From: an uncultured bacterium | GTDB lineage: Bacteria; Patescibacteriota; Saccharimonadia; UBA4664; SCTI01 | Reading direction: 5' to 3' | Assembly (NCBI GenBank): GCA_963721685.1 | Contig: CAVRJJ010000005.1 | Coordinates: forward strand, 167,943-231,942 | Length of the DNA stretch: 64,000 nt | Shown here: positions 24,358-53,701 of the stretch, piece by piece | How the letters are laid out: each line of letters starts with the position of its first letter | Numbering within the stretch: the first letter of the stretch is position 1 | Made by a program: the position numbers and the translations under genes | The notes under the pieces: generated by a model | Told to the model about the DNA's origin: nothing | Seen by the model: the letters and a program-made list of their open reading frames with translations, nothing else | Database searches by the model: none

Positions 24358-26280
24358 CTACTGCACCGTACTGTGAAAGTTCATCCCGACGTCATTCATC
24401 CATATAATACTTTCAGCTACCGGGTTAAAGTATTCTGAATACGTGCCCAATGTCAGAGGGGCCTTATAGTCAAACTCGAACGTTCCAACTTGGCCCGGGG
24501 CAACGCTAATTTCCTTTAGGCCGGTGGGACGTTTATTCCATAGCCATCCCGGTGCCGCGAAACCGCTCACCCGCTCAAAAGGATGGGAAGTGCCCACGCG
24601 CACGGGATACGGTCCGCCTTGATACCAGGTTGCGTTGCCGGTATTCCGGGCCGTAAAGCCAATGAAGACCGTTTGTCCGGGTGCTAGGTTGGAAAGGTTA
24701 ACGGACGTGGTTTTTGTGCTGTTTGAATAGGCGTATTGGCTGACAAGCGACCAGCTGTAACCGCTCTTTACCTGGGTATAGAAGCTCAGGCCAATATCTT
24801 TCATCCAAGTAATTCCTTCAGCTAACAGGTTGTAACGGGGAATAAAGGTGCCTTCACCTGGCGGAACGGTAATGGGAAATTCGAAAGTTCCGGTAGCTCC
24901 CGGCGCTACACTGGCCTCAAGCATATTGGCCGGACGGCTAACGCCCAGCCAAGCTGGTGTGTGGTAGCGGTCAACGCGTTCTTTAGGCCCCTCGGTCCCC
25001 AGACGAATTGGATGTGCTCCGCTGTTAGTCCAGGTAACATTACCCGTGTTGGTGGCTCGTATGACTAACCAAGCCGATTGGCCTGGAGACAAGCCGCCCA
25101 GATTGGTGGGTGTGGTTTTTGCGCTTGTGGTGTAGGCCGATTGCCCAGCAAGCGACCAGGAATATATGTCTGGCACGACTGTCGCGTTGAAATAAAGCCC
25201 GGGGTCATTCATCCACATATTGCCTTCAACCAGAAGATTAAAATATTCCTTAAAGGTGCCCCCCGCCGGGGGCATTTTGGCGGTGAAGGTGAACGTACCG
25301 GTTTGTCCGGCCGCGACGCTGGCTTCGTTTAACGTGGCGGGCCGCGACGGGCTTAGCCAGCCGGTATTGGAAAACGCGCTGGATCGATCGTTGGGGCGGC
25401 TGGCTCCGAGACGAACGGGATTAGGGCCGCTATTCGTCCAGGTATTAAAGCCGGAGTTAAGCGCGCTTACCGTAAAGGTAGCGACCTCGCCACCCCTAAT
25501 ACCATTAAGGGACTTGTTTGTAGTCTGCCCCGCGTACGTCCAGGCGTAAGTAACTCCCCGCACGCTACCGAACCAGCTTTCAAAAATGCCGGGGAACGAT
25601 TGGTTTAAGTGAGGAGTGTAGGTAAAAAGAGAAGCAGTAGTGCCGTTGGCAATAAAGAGCCGCTGACCGTCGATGGTAGCGTATCCGTCATAGCTAACCT
25701 CTGCACAACTGCCGCAACGCTTTCGTACCCCAGCCGTCATATACCCCACATACGTGATGTCGTCGTCACCGTCCCAGGCGGTATTGCCGTAAGCGCGCTC
25801 CTTATTAAATTTTAGTTGCCAAGAACCCCACAGCACTTGCCGGGTGAATCCAGCGTATTTTGGATTACAGCCTCCCGAGTCAGGACAGCCATATCCCATT
25901 GCCGAGTTGTATCTCCATCCGTCACAGGAAGTACCTGAAATTAAGCTTTGCTCCTTTTGGAGGGTAGTTATAATTACTTGCGGGTTTAGGCCCCACTGCT
26001 GGGCAGCCTTATAGATGATACGCGAAGCCGGGACGCTACCGGTATAAGACCATGATGATCCATTCCAGGACGGCTCCACATCGTGAAGGTTTACCAGACA
26101 GGGACCCTTTGAAGCCAGGAACGCCTGGATCTGCGCCTCAGACATACTATTGACCTTATCGAAAACGGAATCATCCATCATGTTGGAGTTACTATAATCG
26201 GCGGCGTGGGCGGTACTTCCAAACCCCATACTTATAAATGCCAGGACAAAGCTAAAGATGCTGAGACGTAGTAATTTCAT
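24358..26280 (-). CDS. Secreted surface protein: Cys-rich N-terminal domain plus three copies of a ~125-aa four-Trp repeat domain
   Basis: Signal peptide MKLLRLSIFSFVLAFISMGFGSTAHA. Three repeats of the pattern YAWTYAGQ ... NSGFNTWTNSGPNPVRLGASRP ... WL ... EASVAPGQTGTFTF ... EGNMWMNDPGLYF. Paralogous to the repeats in 48863..50572. Confidence 0.7.
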   Translation of the reverse strand: MKLLRLSIFSFVLAFISMGFGSTAHAADYSNSNMMDDSVFDKVNSMSEAQIQAFLASKGPCLVNLHDVEPSWNGSSWSYTGSVPASRIIYKAAQQWGLNPQVIITTLQKEQSLISGTSCDGWRYNSAMGYGCPDSGGCNPKYAGFTRQVLWGSWQLKFNKERAYGNTAWDGDDDITYVGYMTAGVRKRCGSCAEVSYDGYATIDGQRLFIANGTTASLFTYTPHLNQSFPGIFESWFGSVRGVTYAWTYAGQTTNKSLNGIRGGEVATFTVSALNSGFNTWTNSGPNPVRLGASRPNDRSSAFSNTGWLSPSRPATLNEASVAAGQTGTFTFTAKMPPAGGTFKEYFNLLVEGNMWMNDPGLYFNATVVPDIYSWSLAGQSAYTTSAKTTPTNLGGLSPGQSAWLVIRATNTGNVTWTNSGAHPIRLGTEGPKERVDRYHTPAWLGVSRPANMLEASVAPGATGTFEFPITVPPGEGTFIPRYNLLAEGITWMKDIGLSFYTQVKSGYSWSLVSQYAYSNSTKTTSVNLSNLAPGQTVFIGFTARNTGNATWYQGGPYPVRVGTSHPFERVSGFAAPGWLWNKRPTGLKEISVAPGQVGTFEFDYKAPLTLGTYSEYFNPVAESIIWMNDVGMNFHSTVQ

Positions 26281-26795
26281 TAAGGGCTCACTGTTAATAG
26301 TTGGGGATTTGATTTAGCGCTTTGGCCATCTTTTGAAGCTACCGCCCGGATGGACCATTGGCCCAGTGAAAGCTGTTTTGCGTTCCAGTTAAAGATTACA
26401 CCATCGCTGGCCGTGGTGCTTCCAATTACTTTGGTGTCACTTACCTTGATAGTCTGGGTATCTCTAGTCGCTTCAATATAGCAAGAAGCCCCGGCAAGCG
26501 AACGGCAGACCGACTCCATGCCGGTAGGCCCGGAGAGGCTGACAGAACTTGTATTATTGATAGGACCAATAGGCTGTGCCAGCGTTGAGCTCGTTGGGCG
26601 GCTAGGGTTGGGCTGCGGTGTTGTCGTGGGCGCGGGAGAGGTATCTGTATTAGGCCCGGCGTGAATCTCGGTATCGGCGGAGCTTGATGGAGTATAGCCT
26701 GGTTGGGTTGCTTTAATGTAAGCGGCAACACCCACCACAATGAGGGCTAACGTGGCTAATATAAGAATAGTTTTGTTTTTGGCGGATCGTTTCAT
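26280..26795 (-). CDS. Membrane-anchored Pro/Thr/Ser-rich protein with C-terminal beta-rich domain
   Basis: N-terminal transmembrane anchor, low-complexity PT linker. The stop overlaps the start of the downstream repeat protein (operon). Confidence 0.5.
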   Translation of the reverse strand: MKRSAKNKTILILATLALIVVGVAAYIKATQPGYTPSSSADTEIHAGPNTDTSPAPTTTPQPNPSRPTSSTLAQPIGPINNTSSVSLSGPTGMESVCRSLAGASCYIEATRDTQTIKVSDTKVIGSTTASDGVIFNWNAKQLSLGQWSIRAVASKDGQSAKSNPQLLTVSP

Positions 26796-34770: not shown

Positions 34771-34845
34771 TCCGGCGTAGCTCAGTGGTAGAGCAGTTGA
34801 CTGTTAATCAATTGGTCGCAGGTTCGAATCCTGCCGCCGGAGCCA
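34771..34845 (+). tRNA. tRNA-Asn (anticodon GUU), CCA encoded
   Basis: Manual fold: acceptor TCCGGCG/CGCCGGA, D arm GCTC-AGTGGTA-GAGC, anticodon arm GTTGA-CTGTTAA-TCAAT (GTT), T arm GCAGG-TTCGAAT-CCTGC, discriminator G, CCA. Confidence 0.9.
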
Positions 34846-34932
34846 AAGGCGAGAAGATAACTTCTGTTATCGCCTCGCCTTTTGTTTTGGCAGGCAGGCT
34901 CCAAACCTAGGTTCGGTGGATGAGGAAATAGA
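34839..34932 (+). repeat. Direct repeat copy 1 (tRNA 3' end GGAGCCA + terminator hairpin + ~50 bp), bracketing the GAF cassette
   Basis: About 80% identical to 35569..35663. Both begin with GGAGCCAAAGGCGAGAAGATAAC and share ...AAACCTRGGTTCGGTGGATGAGGAAAT. Confidence 0.7.
34848..34888 (+). terminator. Rho-independent terminator after tRNA-Asn
   Basis: GGCGAG-AA-GATAAC TTCT GTTATC-GC-CTCGCC followed by TTTTGTTTT. Confidence 0.6.
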
Positions 34933-35050: not shown

Positions 35051-35476
35051 TTGAAGCAAATCCGAGAGTTAGACAAAATCACCAGCGATGCGTCAGAATT
35101 CTTTAATGTCCCTTACGCGATGATAAATCTCGTAACATCGGATAGAGTTATATTCAAGTCTTGTACTGGTCTGGTTGTGGGCGATTCATTGGATCGTAAT
35201 GGTTCATTTTGCTCAGCGGCTTCGCAAAAAGATAGTCCGCTGGTCATAAAAGATGCGACTCAGGACTCTTACTTTAAAACTAATCCGCTGGTCGTTGGAA
35301 GCTTAAAAATACGATCATATGCTGGAAAATCATTACATGCACCTGACGGCACACGGATGGGCACTCTCTGCCTCCTCGATACAGTACCAAGAGATTACAC
35401 GAAGGAGCAGCTTCGTTCTTTGACGGACCGGGCAAAGCTGGCGAGCATAACGCTACATGCGATTTTAACTACCTAG
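35051..35476 (+). CDS. Stand-alone GAF-domain protein
   Basis: 141 aa with a GAF-like pattern of conserved Gly/Cys/Asp. TTG start with a weak RBS; the start is uncertain. Confidence 0.5.
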   Translation: MKQIRELDKITSDASEFFNVPYAMINLVTSDRVIFKSCTGLVVGDSLDRNGSFCSAASQKDSPLVIKDATQDSYFKTNPLVVGSLKIRSYAGKSLHAPDGTRMGTLCLLDTVPRDYTKEQLRSLTDRAKLASITLHAILTT

Positions 35477-35568: not shown

Positions 35569-35663
35569 GGAGCCAAAGGCGAGAAGATAACATCGGTTAT
35601 CGCCTCGCCCTTTGTTTTAGATGGAGGGATGCGAAACCTGGGTTCGGTGGATGAGGAAATGGA
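35569..35663 (+). repeat. Direct repeat copy 2, including a second terminator hairpin with covarying loop (ATCG instead of TTCT)
   Basis: GGAGCCAAAGGCGAGAAGATAACATCGGTTATCGCCTCGCCCTTTGTTTT... The stem is preserved and the loop changed. Confidence 0.7.
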
Positions 35664-46438: not shown

Positions 46439-47905
46439 TTAGTCTGGTCCTGGTCGCACGGACGACCGGCGATTGCCGCCTGTAGCGGCACGGCTGGCAT
46501 CGTACCCGGCACCAACATCATAGTAGCCCTGCCACCACGACTCTAGGAAGTTTGTTTCGGTAACGGCTGTCCCGGCATACGTTAACACTCGTATAAGCGG
46601 CCCGTTTGGCGGGGACTCAAGCGCCGTAAGTACCTCGGCTTTGGCGGTACTGGTTCTCACATTCCCGGCGCTCACCCGGACGCCAGAGCGGAATCCTGAA
46701 TAGTAGGCGTAAAAGCTAGACAAGGCAGTTCCATCTGTCCTATAAACCATGACATGGGGACCGGCGCCGGGACCCGCCCCCGTGATAATTTCGGCGTTAG
46801 CCGTACCTTCCACATCAGCCGCGGCAACATCAATCCCTCCTTTGAAACTCTGGTCGTAGGCGTAAAAACTAGCAACCACGGTAGTTCCATCGGCCTTATA
46901 CGCGATAACATGAGGGCTAGCACTTGGTCCCGCCCCAGCAATTATTTCGGCTTTTCCGTCCCCATCTAAATCTCCGGCACTGACCGATATTCCGCCCTTA
47001 AAGCTCGGGTGGAAAGCATAAAAACTAGCAATTGGCGTGCCATCAATCTTAAACGCTTTCACGTGGGGTCCCGCCCCCGGCCCGGTGCCGGTTATGATCT
47101 CATCAACTCCATCGCCATCAAGGTCTCCGGCCGCCACATCAATACCTCCCCTGAAGCGGGGATCGTAGGCGTAAAAACTAGCTAGAGCAGTGCCATCGGC
47201 CCGGGTCGCGATTACGTGGGGGGCGCCACCGCTACCCGCCCCAACGACGGTTTCGGAAGTAGTGCTAGGGCCCTCGAAGTTGCCCATAGCCACCTTAAGA
47301 GGCCCTTGGAATCCCTGAAAAGGCAGCTGCTCATTCGGGAGCGCCGGGTACGCCACCGGAGCCGAAAGACGCAGGGCCTGATTGAGTGAAGCGTAGGGGT
47401 TAATTAACGAACCGTCGGGTGCAAAAATTTCAAAATGCAGGTGCGGCGGGGTGGTTTCGGCATTGCCGGAATCGCCAACATACCCGATAAACTGACCCCT
47501 TACCACACGGTTGCCTGTTTTCATGTCCGGAGCGTAAGCGTTCATTGGCCCGCCCTGCCCATCATCGGTGCCGGGATGGTCATTGTTAAGATGGATAAAG
47601 CGAAACGCGTATCCTTCGGCATCTTCAACCGTAACGCTGTAGCCCCATGAGGCCTCAGGCACAATCACTGAGGTTACGGTTCCGTCGATTGGTGAAACCA
47701 ACGCCCTGCCCTTAGGGGCAAAAATATCGGTTGCCCCGTGGGTTCCGTTGGAGCGCGGGGCGTTAAAGTCGTTTGAATAGCTGGCCGAGCCGGTAACCGG
47801 AAAGACTATTGGCGGAACCGCTTTGGCTTCGGAGGGAATAAACAATATGGCCGCGGCGGCAGGAACCAAGAACACAAAGATACTTCGAAATGGTAATGCT
47901 TTCAT
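46439..47905 (-). CDS. Secreted M23 (LytM) peptidase fused to FG-GAP/VCBS-type beta-propeller repeats
   Basis: M23 motifs GTHGATDIF ... HLHFEI. At least five repeats of the ...GAGPGAGPHV..DGT..ASFYAY...F.GG..V.AGD.DGDG..EII.G type. Confidence 0.8.
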   Translation of the reverse strand: MKALPFRSIFVFLVPAAAAILFIPSEAKAVPPIVFPVTGSASYSNDFNAPRSNGTHGATDIFAPKGRALVSPIDGTVTSVIVPEASWGYSVTVEDAEGYAFRFIHLNNDHPGTDDGQGGPMNAYAPDMKTGNRVVRGQFIGYVGDSGNAETTPPHLHFEIFAPDGSLINPYASLNQALRLSAPVAYPALPNEQLPFQGFQGPLKVAMGNFEGPSTTSETVVGAGSGGAPHVIATRADGTALASFYAYDPRFRGGIDVAAGDLDGDGVDEIITGTGPGAGPHVKAFKIDGTPIASFYAFHPSFKGGISVSAGDLDGDGKAEIIAGAGPSASPHVIAYKADGTTVVASFYAYDQSFKGGIDVAAADVEGTANAEIITGAGPGAGPHVMVYRTDGTALSSFYAYYSGFRSGVRVSAGNVRTSTAKAEVLTALESPPNGPLIRVLTYAGTAVTETNFLESWWQGYYDVGAGYDASRAATGGNRRSSVRPGPD

Positions 47906-48862: not shown

Positions 48863-50572
48863 ATGCACCTCATCTCAAAACGTTTCCCTCTCTCTATGGC
48901 TGCCATAATGGCATTCGGCCTGATGCTCGCCCTGCTGTCAATTCAGCCGGTACGGGCGGCGGATCCGGTAAAGCTTTCACTCGGCCCTCCATCGCAAAAT
49001 GTCAGCACTGGCTCTACCTTTCAAATGGCAATCAATTTAACCACTTTCGGCCAAGCGGTTGATACGGTTTCGGCATCGTTAACCTATCCCAGTGATCGCC
49101 TTACGTGCCAAAGCGTCACCACCACCTCGGATTTTACCTTTATTCCCCAACCGGATGTATGCAGCGGAGGAACCATCCTGGTTCAAAGGGGGCGAAGCAG
49201 TAATTACACGGCAAACGGGGTAATCGCCCTTGTTACCTTCAAGGCATTAATTCCAGGTTCAGCACCTGTACACCTTAATGACTCTTCAGTAGCGCTTACT
49301 GGGGGCGAGGATGTGCCTTACACCACCGAAGACGCTAATTATTTGGTGGTAAGCGGCCCTAAAATCTACGCCTGGACCTATGCTGGCCAGACGAGCAGTA
49401 AGCCTTTGAATAACATTCTTCCCGGCCAAACGGCAACCTTCACCGTGAGCGCCCTTAACTCAGGGTTTTATACCTGGACCAATAGCGGTGCCAATCCTGT
49501 TCGGCTCGGCGCTAGCCGACCCAACGACCGTACCAGCCCGTTTGCTACCCCCTCATGGCTGAGTCCGGCCAGAGCGGCAACATTAAATGAAGCCAGTGTC
49601 GCTCCCGGCCAAACAGGAACATTTACCTTTTCCGTTCAAACCCCGTCCCAGCCGGGGAATTATAAAGAGTACTACAATCTTTTGGCCGAAGGCATCACTT
49701 GGATGAATGACCCCGGTCTTTATTTTGGCGTTACTGTTTCCCCTCCTACCTACACCTGGTCCTTGGTTGGCCAAGGCGCTTACACCGATGCCTCAAAAGC
49801 TACACCGTTAAACCTGTCCCAACTAACCCCCAACCAGACAGGTTGGCTTGAACTTAAAGTCAGAAATACCGGCAACATGACGTGGACGAACTCCGGCCCT
49901 AACCCCGTACGCATCGGGAGCTCGCGTCCGCTTGAACGGGTGAGCCGTTACGCGACCCCCGCTTGGCTAACACCAAGCCGCCCCGGCAATTTGGTAGAGG
50001 CATCAGTTGCTCCGGGAGCCGTAGGTACCTTTGAGTTCCCCATAACCGCTCCATCAACCACGGGCACTTACATTGAATACTTTACCCCCTTGGCCGAAGG
50101 CATCACTTGGATGAACGACATTGGGCTAAGCTTTTATACGGTGGTTAGCCGAACCTACACCTGGTCCTTGGTTGGCCAAGGCGCTTACACCGATGCCTCA
50201 AAAGCTACACCGTTAAACCTGTCCCAACTAACCCCCAACCAGACAGGTTGGCTTGAACTTAAAGTCAGAAATACCGGCAACATGACGTGGACGAACTCCG
50301 GCCCTAACCCCGTACGCATCGGGAGCTCGCGTCCGCTTGAACGGGTGAGCCGTTACGCGACCCCCGCTTGGCTAACACCAAGCCGCCCCGGCAATTTGGT
50401 AGAGGCATCAGTTGCTCCGGGAGCCGTAGGTACCTTTGAGTTCCCCATAACCGCTCCATCAACCACGGGCACTTACATTGAATACTTTACCCCCTTGGCC
50501 GAAGGCATCACTTGGATGAACGACATTGGGCTAAGCTTTTATACGGTGGTTAATCCCGGGGGCGGGAAGTAG
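48863..50572 (+). CDS. Secreted surface protein: cohesin-like N-terminal domain plus three four-Trp repeat domains (the last two identical)
   Basis: Signal peptide, a cohesin-like beta-sandwich segment (KLSLGPPSQNVSTGSTFQMAINLTT...), then repeats homologous to those of 24358..26280. TTGCGC-N16-TATAAT promoter at 48797-48831. Confidence 0.7.
   Translation: MHLISKRFPLSMAAIMAFGLMLALLSIQPVRAADPVKLSLGPPSQNVSTGSTFQMAINLTTFGQAVDTVSASLTYPSDRLTCQSVTTTSDFTFIPQPDVCSGGTILVQRGRSSNYTANGVIALVTFKALIPGSAPVHLNDSSVALTGGEDVPYTTEDANYLVVSGPKIYAWTYAGQTSSKPLNNILPGQTATFTVSALNSGFYTWTNSGANPVRLGASRPNDRTSPFATPSWLSPARAATLNEASVAPGQTGTFTFSVQTPSQPGNYKEYYNLLAEGITWMNDPGLYFGVTVSPPTYTWSLVGQGAYTDASKATPLNLSQLTPNQTGWLELKVRNTGNMTWTNSGPNPVRIGSSRPLERVSRYATPAWLTPSRPGNLVEASVAPGAVGTFEFPITAPSTTGTYIEYFTPLAEGITWMNDIGLSFYTVVSRTYTWSLVGQGAYTDASKATPLNLSQLTPNQTGWLELKVRNTGNMTWTNSGPNPVRIGSSRPLERVSRYATPAWLTPSRPGNLVEASVAPGAVGTFEFPITAPSTTGTYIEYFTPLAEGITWMNDIGLSFYTVVNPGGGK
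49748..50557 (+). repeat. Perfect (by eye, 100% identical) 405-bp x 2 intragenic tandem duplication
   Basis: 49748..50152 equals 50153..50557 (ACCTACACCTGGTCCTTGGTTGGCCAAGGCGCTTACACC...). It encodes two identical 135-aa repeat units. Confidence 0.8.
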
Positions 50573-50578
50573 TAAACG

Positions 50579-51589
50579 TTACAACCTAAGTTGGAACTGA
50601 TTTTCCGGGTCAGCCATATATTCGTTAAGGTACGGCGAATAAGTTTCTACTTGTATTAGACGTTTGGTGGGCTGGAACGTTAAGATGCGCAAAAAGCCGT
50701 TACCGCCGTTACCCAGTTGCTGGTAATTAGCCAACATCTGATGGACAGGGTGGCCATCGATGATATCAGTGCGGCGGGCGGCTCCATGAGTGGAAGTAAT
50801 ATCGTGGCCAGATAAAAACAGAGAGAGATTGAGATGATTTTGGTCAACCACTAGTTTTTGCCAGATTTCTTCGCCGGCGTTATCTCCTCCCCCACCATAA
50901 GACCTGCAAATTGCGCTATTTGAGCGCTCACCCCGAAAATCAGTAAAAGAGTGGGTTGTAATAATCGCCCTCCGGTTAGGGTGAAGAGTAAGCGTATCGC
51001 CGACCCAATCAATAACTGGATCCGGCGGGCAAAACTCTAAGTTAAAAGCTATATATTGTGCCCCCCCGCCGTTAAACAGCTGGAAGCTGTTCTTGCTACC
51101 AGCGTGTTCGTCGTGAGGCTGGGGGTTATCATTTAAATAACTACCGCCCCAAGTTTGGGAACGCTTGAGACGTGATAGGGGAAAATATTTTTGGTATAAG
51201 GGGGCATTTCCGCCCGGGGCAATATCATGATTTCCCGGGGCTAGGCCGTAGGGGACAACCCCGTCCAGCTTTTGCATGGCCGCGTCGGCAATCTGCCATT
51301 GCGCTTCAATGTCGGGGGTTTGAACAATATCGCCTTCCTGCGAAACAAATACAATATTCCTATTCTTTTTATGCTCGGCAATCCACGCGGTTTGGGCCAT
51401 AAAGATTTCCGGAAACGACATCGAATAAAACTGGGTATCGGGCAACACAATGATCGAGAAAGCGCGCGCTGTTTCATCCCCGTCCGGCAATGGGCGGGTT
51501 AGGGGTTGATGAGGTTCCGGTAATGTTGCTACATAGGAAGCTATGATTAAGGAAACCGCTAAAACGATACGGCTAAATAGGTGATTCAT
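50579..51589 (-). CDS. Secreted calcineurin-like metallophosphoesterase
   Basis: GNHD, GDxxD-like and GH motifs. N-terminal signal peptide. Confidence 0.7.
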   Translation of the reverse strand: MNHLFSRIVLAVSLIIASYVATLPEPHQPLTRPLPDGDETARAFSIIVLPDTQFYSMSFPEIFMAQTAWIAEHKKNRNIVFVSQEGDIVQTPDIEAQWQIADAAMQKLDGVVPYGLAPGNHDIAPGGNAPLYQKYFPLSRLKRSQTWGGSYLNDNPQPHDEHAGSKNSFQLFNGGGAQYIAFNLEFCPPDPVIDWVGDTLTLHPNRRAIITTHSFTDFRGERSNSAICRSYGGGGDNAGEEIWQKLVVDQNHLNLSLFLSGHDITSTHGAARRTDIIDGHPVHQMLANYQQLGNGGNGFLRILTFQPTKRLIQVETYSPYLNEYMADPENQFQLRL

Positions 51590-51703: not shown

Positions 51704-52675
51704 ATGTTAATTCCAAAAACATTACAGCAATTCCTTTTGGAGGGGTTGAAAGACCATCCCGAACGTTTAGACCTCGTGATGGTTATGTCGAATATTGCTA
51801 CGATCGGCAAGCTGATTTCTGCCCAGACTAACCGGGTTGGACTGGCGGATATTCGCGGCTTGTCAAAGAGCGCCAACGTTCACGACGAAACCCAGGCCAA
51901 GCTGGATTTGTACGCCAATGATTTATGCAAAAGCTATCTGGAAAGTACCGGTTCATTCGCGGCGCTAGCGAGCGAAGAAGAGGAGCAGGTGGTTGATCTC
52001 AACAGCCCGGACGCCAAGTATGTGATTGCCTTTGATCCGCTTGATGGCAGCAGTAATATTGATGTGAACGTGGCGGTGGGAACTATTTTTTCAGTCCATA
52101 GCAAACGAGAAGATGTCCCGGCAGGCGACCCGCGGCAGTTTTTCCAAAAAGGCGCGGACCAAGTGCTAGCGGGGTATGTAATGTATGGATCCAGTACCGT
52201 ACTGGTGTTTAGCTGGGGCAGCGGCGTTCATGAATTTACCCTTGATGTAGACTTAGGTGAATTTTTCTTAAGCGACGAGCACATGAAGGTACCGGAAACC
52301 TGCGCCTACTATAGTGTTAATGAGTCCTATGTTCCGTATATGGCCGAGAAAGACCAGAAGTATGTCGCGGTTTTACGGGAACGCACCACTAAGCAGCGCT
52401 GGGTCGGCGCGTTTGTAGGGGATTTCCACCGCAACTTAATTAAGGGCGGCGTTTTCTTTTCCCCGCCCGTTGACACCAGCGGACAGCAACAGTTTAAGCC
52501 CAAATTACGGCTTAACTATGAGCTGAAACCGCTGGCGTTTTTAATTGAGCAGGCCGGCGGATCAGCTACTGCCGGAGGGGAGCGGATATTGGATATCATG
52601 CCAAGTGAACTCCACCAACGAGCTTCTGCCATCCTGGGAAATACAGAGATAGTTAAACTTTACGAGGAGTCCTAA
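51704..52675 (+). CDS. fbp: Fructose-1,6-bisphosphatase class 1
   Basis: FDPLDGSSNIDVNVAVGTIFSV metal-binding motif of type I FBPase. Confidence 0.9.
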   Translation: MLIPKTLQQFLLEGLKDHPERLDLVMVMSNIATIGKLISAQTNRVGLADIRGLSKSANVHDETQAKLDLYANDLCKSYLESTGSFAALASEEEEQVVDLNSPDAKYVIAFDPLDGSSNIDVNVAVGTIFSVHSKREDVPAGDPRQFFQKGADQVLAGYVMYGSSTVLVFSWGSGVHEFTLDVDLGEFFLSDEHMKVPETCAYYSVNESYVPYMAEKDQKYVAVLRERTTKQRWVGAFVGDFHRNLIKGGVFFSPPVDTSGQQQFKPKLRLNYELKPLAFLIEQAGGSATAGGERILDIMPSELHQRASAILGNTEIVKLYEES

Positions 52676-53701
52676 ATGAACCACGCAGAACAACTTAAAA
52701 AAACCGCCCAGGCAATGATGGCTGAAGGCAAAGGGCTGCTCGCGGCCGATGAGAGTACGGCAACGATCGCGAAGCGCTTTGAAGGCGTCGGCATGGAAAA
52801 CACCGAAGACCATCGTCGCCAATACCGCCAGCTCTTGTTTGAAACACCCGGCGCAGAAGCTTTTATTAGCGGTGTCATTTTATATGACGAAACTGCCCGA
52901 GGGAACGATGATCAGGGCAAGCCCTTCGTGCAAGTTTTAAGCGAACGGGGAGTGGTACCAGGCATAAAGGTAGATATTGGGCCACGTGAGTTGGCGCTTC
53001 ACCCAGGTGAAAAAGTAACTGAAGGGCTCGACGGACTGGGCGAGCGTTTTGCCGAATATGCTGGCATGGGCATCGGGTTCGCTAAATGGCGGGCAGTAAT
53101 TATTATTGACGGCAATAGTTTGCCGACCGCGGCTTGTTTAGAGGCTAATGCCCACGCGCTAGCCCGCTACGCCGCTTTAGCCCAAGAAGCGGGAATTGTT
53201 CCTATCGTTGAACCTGAAGTGCTGATGGATGGTACTCATTCTATGGAGCGCTGCATGGAAGTAACCGCCCAGGCGCTCGATGCCTTATTTGTGCAGTTGG
53301 AGAAACAGGGTGTAATGCTTGAAGGCGTCATTTTAAAGCCAAGTATGGTAATTGGCGGAAGTGCTTCCGGTGCTGCTTCCGAACCTGAGGCGGTTGCCGA
53401 ACAGACCCTGAAATGCCTAACCGAGCATGCCCCGCATAACTTAGCTGGTGTAATGTTCCTGTCTGGGGGGCAAAGCGACGAAGACGCGACGGCTCACTTA
53501 AACGCGATGAATAAAATTGGAGGCACGCCGTGGGGGCTGTCGTTTTCCTATGGCCGTGCTTTGCAAAATCCCGTGTTAAGCCTCTGGGCTAAGGGAGAAA
53601 AAGACAAAGCCCAGGCCGCCTACCTTCATCGCGCCGAAGCCAATAGCTTAGCCGCCCGAGGCCAATGGACACACGAGTTTGAAGAAATCCGTCCCTACTA
53701 A
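52676..53701 (+). CDS. fba: Fructose-bisphosphate aldolase, class I (eukaryotic-type Schiff-base aldolase)
   Basis: GKGLLAADESTATIAKRF and a downstream Lys region diagnostic of class I FBA. Confidence 0.88.
   Translation: MNHAEQLKKTAQAMMAEGKGLLAADESTATIAKRFEGVGMENTEDHRRQYRQLLFETPGAEAFISGVILYDETARGNDDQGKPFVQVLSERGVVPGIKVDIGPRELALHPGEKVTEGLDGLGERFAEYAGMGIGFAKWRAVIIIDGNSLPTAACLEANAHALARYAALAQEAGIVPIVEPEVLMDGTHSMERCMEVTAQALDALFVQLEKQGVMLEGVILKPSMVIGGSASGAASEPEAVAEQTLKCLTEHAPHNLAGVMFLSGGQSDEDATAHLNAMNKIGGTPWGLSFSYGRALQNPVLSLWAKGEKDKAQAAYLHRAEANSLAARGQWTHEFEEIRPY

Follow-up and report, generated by a model that had tools for sequence, protein, structure and literature searches.

Two DNA-identical Ig-like domains at the C-terminus of a secreted cohesin-like protein from an uncultured Saccharimonadia bacterium, and their probable origin by recombination between tandem repeats

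The DNA analysed here, referred to below as the window, is a stretch of 64,000 nt (positions 167,943 to 231,942 of contig CAVRJJ010000005.1, assembly GCA_963721685.1) from an uncultured bacterium whose GTDB lineage is Patescibacteriota, Saccharimonadia, UBA4664, SCTI01. On its forward strand, at 48863..50572, lies an intact open reading frame (ORF) for a protein of 569 aa, which the ORF list and Pfam resolve into a secreted cohesin-like head followed by three immunoglobulin-like (Ig) domains of the NBR1/FW type. The last two of these domains are encoded by DNA that is identical over 400 nt, and it is this identical unit, designated S, with which this report is concerned. In a first-pass annotation the same pair had been described as a perfect 405-bp tandem duplication inside a surface-protein gene.

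Tandem Repeats Finder (TRF) reported a single array between positions 47000 and 53000, at 49748-50552, with a period of 405, 2.0 copies, 100% matches and a score of 1610. Direct base-by-base comparison of 49748-50152 with 50153-50557, the two units that had been called identical at every base, gave 401 matches in 405. The array is thus real and its identity exact over 400 nt (49748-50147 equals 50153-50552), but four of the five closing positions of the period are mismatched, GCCGA at 50148-50152 standing against ATCCC at 50553-50557; were four mismatches scattered at random, they would all fall in the last five positions with P = 4.5e-9. The array, which lies on the forward strand, can be written as A - S(400) - GCCGA - S(400) - tail. 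Copy 1 of S (49748..50147) is an NBR1-Ig domain belonging to the R2 clade described below, the junction pentamer (50148..50152) lies within a two-codon Ser-Arg linker, copy 2 (50153..50552) occupies the slot that is held by an R3-type domain in relatives, and the C-terminal tail (…N-P-G-G-G-K) with the stop codon (50553..50572) is outside the repeat. S begins in codon phase 0 at residue 296 and encodes a 133-residue Ig-like domain, and the period amounts to 135 codons, in frame. Since the identity extends to every synonymous site, the event must be very recent, which was one of the two possibilities named in the first-pass annotation. Apart from the S pair, no direct repeat longer than 68 nt was found in the 64-kb window, which excludes chance as the source of the identity.

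The first repeat of the protein is much less similar to S than the two copies are to each other, at about 50% DNA and 52-54% protein identity, somewhat lower than the "about 60%" estimated at first. Embedded in it is a 26-nt stretch, TTGGCCGAAGGCATCACTTGGATGAA (49682..49707, forward strand; encoding LAEGITWMN), that recurs exactly in both S copies at 50090-50115 and 50495-50520, where the surrounding DNA of repeat 1 and S is about 50% identical. A paralogue elsewhere in the window (24358-26280) encodes an equivalent of the LAEGITWMN motif with different codons. The 26-nt stretch is possibly a short conversion patch, and possibly also an anchor for recombination.

The protein opens with a putative Sec-type signal peptide (48863..48958, forward strand), recognized by eye from a basic n-region, a hydrophobic core and a VRA-A motif, with cleavage predicted at MHLISKRFPLSMAAIMAFGLMLALLSIQPVRA/AD; a helix was placed at residues 12-26 in the AlphaFold2 (AF2) model of the 569-aa protein, in the region of this putative signal. 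The head that follows, of about 135 aa (48959..49363), was assigned as cohesin-like from a sub-threshold Pfam match and from its homologues. It gave 18.6 and 21.6 bits against PF00963 (Cohesin), below the gathering cutoff of 24.1, whereas a homologue with a 40% identical head (P0126) scored 34.5 bits, above that cutoff, and the orthologue P0121 is named "cohesin domain-containing protein" by NCBI. The head region of the AF2 model had a predicted local distance difference test score (pLDDT) below 50 and was uninformative. Repeat 1 with its linker (49364..49747) was delimited by hmmsearch, whose domain spans residues 168-294; in the tree of units described below it groups with R1, and it shares 71-72% identity with the R1 units of the relatives P0024 and P0002. 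The protein ends four residues (GGGK) past the last repeat as defined by hmmsearch and six (NPGGGK) past the exact identity, and at this C-terminus neither a sortase motif, a transmembrane segment nor an anchor motif was found.

The 569-aa protein belongs to PF16158 (N_BRCA1_IG, the FW domain of NBR1), which it matched in three stretches with 67.7 bits against a cutoff of 28 (E = 1.6e-18). Each of the three repeats was modelled by AF2 as an Ig-like beta-sandwich with a pLDDT above 95, and invariant or near-invariant tryptophans recur across them at W171/W299/W434, W205/W341/W476, W232/W368/W503 and, listed for the first two repeats only, W280/W416. No match to the S unit was obtained in a sequence search of the PDB, nothing meaningful was found in an NCBIfam search, and the Foldseek matches were generic tandem-Ig arrays only, namely PrgB, the C123 region of antigen I/II and S-layer proteins. 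The product looks secreted or surface-exposed, in line with its first description as a surface protein, and its location is probably the cell surface.

The exact 569-aa protein (P0001 in the database searched) was seen on one contig only, and its relatives all come from metagenome-assembled genomes of Saccharimonadia, Saccharibacteria or Patescibacteria. The family counts given here rest on the 120 best homologues, which share the repeat region only; their heads are unrelated, and some carry Pfam amidase_2, S8 peptidase or fn3 domains. The units, of about 135 aa each, run up to the C-terminus and number three in 62 of these proteins, four in 47 and five in 11. Literature searches combining Saccharibacteria with NBR1 or cohesin found no paper. 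In a neighbour-joining tree of units from eight related proteins the repeats formed positional clades, R1, R2 and R3, and both identical units of the 569-aa protein fell in the R2 clade, so that the protein reads head-R1-R2-R2. The unit nearest to S is the R2 of P0024 (63%, against 56% for the R3 of the same protein), and the mean distance of S was smaller to R2-type than to R3-type units in 179 of 200 bootstrap resamples.

Among the three-repeat proteins the nearest foreign repeat stood at the same position for 52 of 62 R1 units, 43 of 62 R2 units and 45 of 62 R3 units, while in 19 of the 62 no foreign unit came as close to the last repeat as its own neighbour did. The best identity between two repeats of one protein forms a continuum (100, 99, 99, 99 for the 569-aa protein, 93, 89, 87, 82, 82, 80 and downward, with a median of 60), the best pair usually includes the last unit, and a pair at least 90% identical is present in 5 of the 120. 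At the DNA level, exact runs were at most 64 nt long at 16 loci of species-representative genomes. Perfect pairs are thus uncommon in the family, yet they arise independently. The closest relatives of the 569-aa protein in a scan of genome contigs were at most 59% identical to it; a 31-mer taken from the unit's end had no exact match in a metagenome scan, and a head-based protein scan of metagenomes returned no relative.

Several relatives do carry repeats of the same kind in their DNA. A close parallel is the gene of P0002 (locus L017, 4115-5729 of contig CAZJMC010000004.1, GCA_964547205.1), in which two domains have been duplicated together to give an array R1-R2-R3-R2-R3. Here the exact run is 805 nt and the period 810 nt, found by a custom period scan because the longest period returned by TRF is 500. 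The four mismatches are all among the final 5 nt of the period, a clustering with P = 2.8e-10 under random placement, and the 5-nt junction, AGGCC, is derivable from neither flank nor tail, the same pattern as in the window array. In three other cases the exact run equals or exceeds the period, as expected of a one-step duplication: 422 nt against 414 with an 8-nt microhomology in P0047, recovered from two different JGI samples (L018 and L019), 417 against 414 in P0110 (L020), which is clean, and 462 against 462 in P0122 (L022), with two perfect R1-type units. The gene of P0097 (L021, 2679-4700, GCA_037143595.1; period 414) differs from all of these in being a mosaic: R2 and R3 have an exact stretch of 363 nt in common, with diverged domain ends on either side, an exact tract of 91 nt is common to R1, R2 and R3, and R1 and R2 have an identical 3' end. 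Such a mosaic is a signature of gene conversion, and conversion-type exchange does occur in the family.

Two close homologues of the head were found, P0121 and P0122, and both are syntenic with the window. Both came from a full HMMER search alone, word-index protein searches with the head and with P0121 having added nothing new. The gene of P0122 (L022, 2914-3837 of JAOQFB010001194.1, GCA_025491075.1) encodes a cohesin-like head and two identical R1-type units of 462 nt, the second of which ends inside the stop codon, and it is followed by genes for an FBPase and a class I aldolase that are 75% and 73% identical to their counterparts at 51704-52675 and 52676-53701 of the window. In the window a gene for a calcineurin-like metallophosphoesterase (50579-51589, reverse strand) lies between the surface-protein gene, 6 nt from its stop, and the FBPase gene, and it is absent from that position in L022. 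The gene of P0121 (L023, 3001-3616 of DASVGB010000033.1, GCA_036379755.1) is preceded by genes for a Dabb protein and an M23/FG-GAP protein, the latter 75% identical to the product of 46439-47905 in the window; in this gene an R2-type unit stands directly after the head, and the contig ends inside that unit. The genome of L023 may also contain near-identical units, as the end of its contig is where a short-read assembler would stop at an unresolved repeat. The orthologous heads are only 48-55% identical, against 73-75% for the flanking genes, showing that the gene evolves faster than its neighbours, and the differing arrays show that the repeat part has been reshuffled in every lineage seen of this orthologue group.

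The array is real, and we regard it as moderately probable that it arose by recent homologous recombination, as a replacement or homogenisation, among the domain repeats inside a secreted protein that evolves fast; the route itself is one that we infer. The family has an old C-terminal array of the positional types R1, R2 and R3, and in the 569-aa protein the last slot is now filled by a DNA-identical copy of R2. Most likely, a non-reciprocal exchange (gene conversion) across an older repeat pair would have homogenised its interior. An equivalent outcome would be reached if unequal exchange had duplicated R2 ahead of an older terminal unit and that unit had then been deleted by exchange between unit ends. 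By either route the Ser-Arg linker and the C-terminal tail would be left unconverted. The junction is the usual two-codon linker between domains (V-SR-TYTW here, V-GH-TYTW in P0002), and on the simplest reading both linker and tail are older than the identity of S.

The simple 405-bp tandem duplication proposed in the first-pass annotation is not supported by these data, as the exact run (400) is shorter than the period (405) and none of the six combinations of flank suffix and tail prefix, in a comparison of the flank and tail sequences, yields GCCGA; no templated source of the pentamer was found in the window or in L017. The confinement of the mismatches to the 5-bp junction is better explained by gene conversion, or by duplication followed by loss, than by a clean duplication. 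The four mismatches were also considered as ordinary substitutions accumulated after duplication, and this was rejected on their clustering (P = 4.5e-9). A modified form of duplication would start from an ancestor of the form head-R1-R2, with R2 copied in a single fresh step through slippage or unequal exchange and the junction either remodelled afterwards or filled during the event itself by five nucleotides that by chance restored the frame. As 400 is 1 mod 3, five extra nucleotides are required to keep the frame. Clean one-step duplications are moreover seen in relatives (422/414 with its microhomology, 417/414 and 462/462), and the orthologues depart from the canonical three slots, P0122 being head-R1-R1 and P0121 beginning with an R2-type unit. 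Even so, it would be very improbable for 5 nt to take four substitutions and the other 400 nt none, the pentamer has no nearby template, and because P0002 also has a run of "period minus 5", one unlikely accident would have to have happened twice. We therefore consider a fresh duplication of this kind unlikely.

Several observations weigh against recombination between older repeats as well. We infer the ancestral array of the gene from paralogous relatives, and as neither syntenic orthologue has the canonical R1-R2-R3 array, the gene may have lacked an R3 unit from the start. The margin by which the last unit is assigned to R2 rather than R3 is modest (63% against 56%, and 90% of resamples). 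Conversion normally needs flanking homology, and here the identity reaches both edges of the domain. Finally, if short reads were the source of the assembly, merging could have made nearly identical copies look identical.

This last point leads to the possibility that the array is an assembly artefact, either because bubble-popping or polishing erased the differences between near-identical copies, or because the assembly took the minimal traversal of a loop whose real copy number is three or more. S, at 400 bp, exceeds the length of a short read; exactly two identical copies are present in all six related cases, which is the minimal path through such a loop in an assembly graph; the orthologue contig L023, with a MEGAHIT-style name, ends inside its first repeat; and a review of Periscope Proteins notes that short reads cannot resolve repeats of this type. 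The S-GCCGA-S and S-tail junctions are, however, both unique sequences, so that there must be at least two copies, and reads containing GGTGGTTAGCCGAACCTACACC must exist; the array could not have been created from one copy. A chimeric join is disfavoured by the synteny of both flanks with relatives, the array is carried on a contig of 466 kb, the structure of P0047 is the same in two samples, and neither the graded pairs at 93, 89, 87 and 82% nor the mosaic of L021 can be artefacts. Of the artefact first suggested for this locus, creation from a single copy thus falls away, and the true copy number may be higher; if short reads were used, the two S copies are a lower bound. As an account of the array, an artefact seems to us quite unlikely.

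It is very improbable that the array is a programmed device for phase or length variation, in which the number of domains would be switched adaptively and at high frequency. The unit does lie in frame (135 codons) in a secreted protein, the recurrence of such events suggests that the family tolerates or favours turnover of its repeats, and an analogy can be drawn with Periscope Proteins. There are, however, only two identical copies, with no simple-sequence tract, invertase or other switching element; no copy-number variants were seen, the organism having been found in no other sample scanned; and the repeats of most family members are diverged, the best pair of a protein having a median identity of 60%. 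The region does not look like a contingency locus, as TRF gave no period other than that of 405 nt between 47000 and 53000 and the S unit is in frame.

The paralogue mentioned above (24358..26280, reverse strand) encodes 640 aa, with a different head followed by a diverged R1-R2-R3 set, and served as reference for the ancestral array. It scored 45.7 bits on PF16158, and its three repeats are 45-48% identical in amino acids and 52-55% in DNA, so that it does carry three diverged copies, as had been noted at the outset; its head (…YGINP..LQKEQSL…GYGCPDSG…) had no match in Pfam. It is preceded by an ORF of 171 aa (26280-26795, reverse strand), also without a Pfam match, whose stop overlaps the start of the paralogue. 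The two stand beside sugar-nucleotide and glycosyltransferase genes, an arrangement that is kept in L017, L018, L020 and L021. Two further sets of repeats were observed in the window. The gene at 46439-47905 (reverse strand), the M23/FG-GAP gene already mentioned, encodes a secreted fusion of an M23 peptidase with FG-GAP repeats and contains three diverged DNA repeats spaced about 153-156 nt apart (46806-47182). A 67-nt direct repeat at 34839-34905 and 35569-35635, 84% identical, starts at the 3' end of a tRNA-Asn gene (34771-34845) and brackets an ORF of 141 aa (35051-35476); this pair could be what is left of a small element that integrated at the tRNA gene, or a duplicated terminator.

Taken alone, the S pair is a known and fairly ordinary kind of event in bacterial surface proteins. 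The main value of the locus lies in the pattern of its family, in which uncharacterised arrays of three to five FW/NBR1-Ig domains are widespread at the C-terminus of many secreted proteins of Saccharibacteria, and in which turnover of the terminal unit by recombination recurs in independent lineages. The array proteins are candidates for a role in host contact or in the envelope of episymbiotic bacteria. On a more practical level, copy numbers of repeats are best read as lower bounds in metagenome-assembled genomes. Tandem repeats are known to recombine in E. coli tandem-repeat assays and in the M protein and alpha C protein. By analogy, two 400-bp direct repeats lying 5 bp apart would be a good substrate for the in-frame loss or gain of a 135-aa domain by homologous or sister-strand exchange, and variants of 434 and 704 aa would be expected at low frequency. 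We put forward, tentatively, that NBR1/FW-Ig arrays might be a surface module found throughout Saccharibacteria and Patescibacteria, whose terminal units are repeatedly duplicated or overwritten and which might provide these host-attached bacteria of reduced genome with a Periscope-like variation in length or avidity. If true, the candidate phyla radiation would thereby gain its first described system of this type, and the FW fold its first extracellular role.

In bacteria, FW domains are known chiefly from XRE regulators, in which a single copy stands at the C-terminus. The arrays described here belong to PF16158, as NBR1 does, have four conserved tryptophans per unit and, like the bacterial FW domains, are placed at the C-terminus; unlike the known bacterial proteins, members of this family carry three to five extracellular copies in tandem, preceded by heads that vary (amidase, S8 peptidase, cohesin-like). 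Multi-copy C-terminal modules that retain proteins at the surface are well known, among them three SLH or three CWB2 domains, GW modules and choline-binding repeats. The NBR1-Ig arrays resemble these in forming a constant C-terminal part on many secreted heads, including peptidoglycan amidases and proteases; they differ in having no relationship to them in sequence or fold, and a surface-binding role for the arrays would be suggested by analogy only.

The closest concept is that of the Periscope Proteins, which, as in Sgo_0707 with its SHIRT repeats, alpha C/Rib and SasG/Aap, consist of a head and tandem globular repeats of more than 50 residues whose DNA is highly identical and whose number varies by recombination; the review of these proteins, in which the difficulty of resolving such repeats with short reads is discussed, cites Hollingshead 1987. 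The 569-aa protein is like them in being secreted, with an N-terminal putative binding head and tandem Ig-like domains of more than 50 residues, some of them DNA-identical. Very high DNA identity is nevertheless confined to two 133-residue units, the remaining repeats being diverged, and while a head is present, a C-terminal wall anchor is absent. As to variation in length among strains, orthologues in other species have different arrays and the 569-aa protein is known from one contig. The repeat fold (NBR1/FW) and the organism, a member of the Saccharibacteria (candidate phyla radiation) and not a cultured pathogen, differ as well, and we do not file the protein as a Periscope Protein.

A further comparison is offered by concerted evolution. 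Gene conversion is known to act in this way on bacterial sequences, as in the size variation and homogenisation of M-protein repeats and in the tufA/tufB pair. Like these, the S pair is perfect in its interior and diverges only at the edge of the homology, and mosaic tracts are present in the relative L021; unlike cases in which concerted evolution has been demonstrated directly, the process is read here from the junction and from the phylogeny of the repeats. The array is best described as a new case of tandem domains evolving in concert within a bacterial surface protein.

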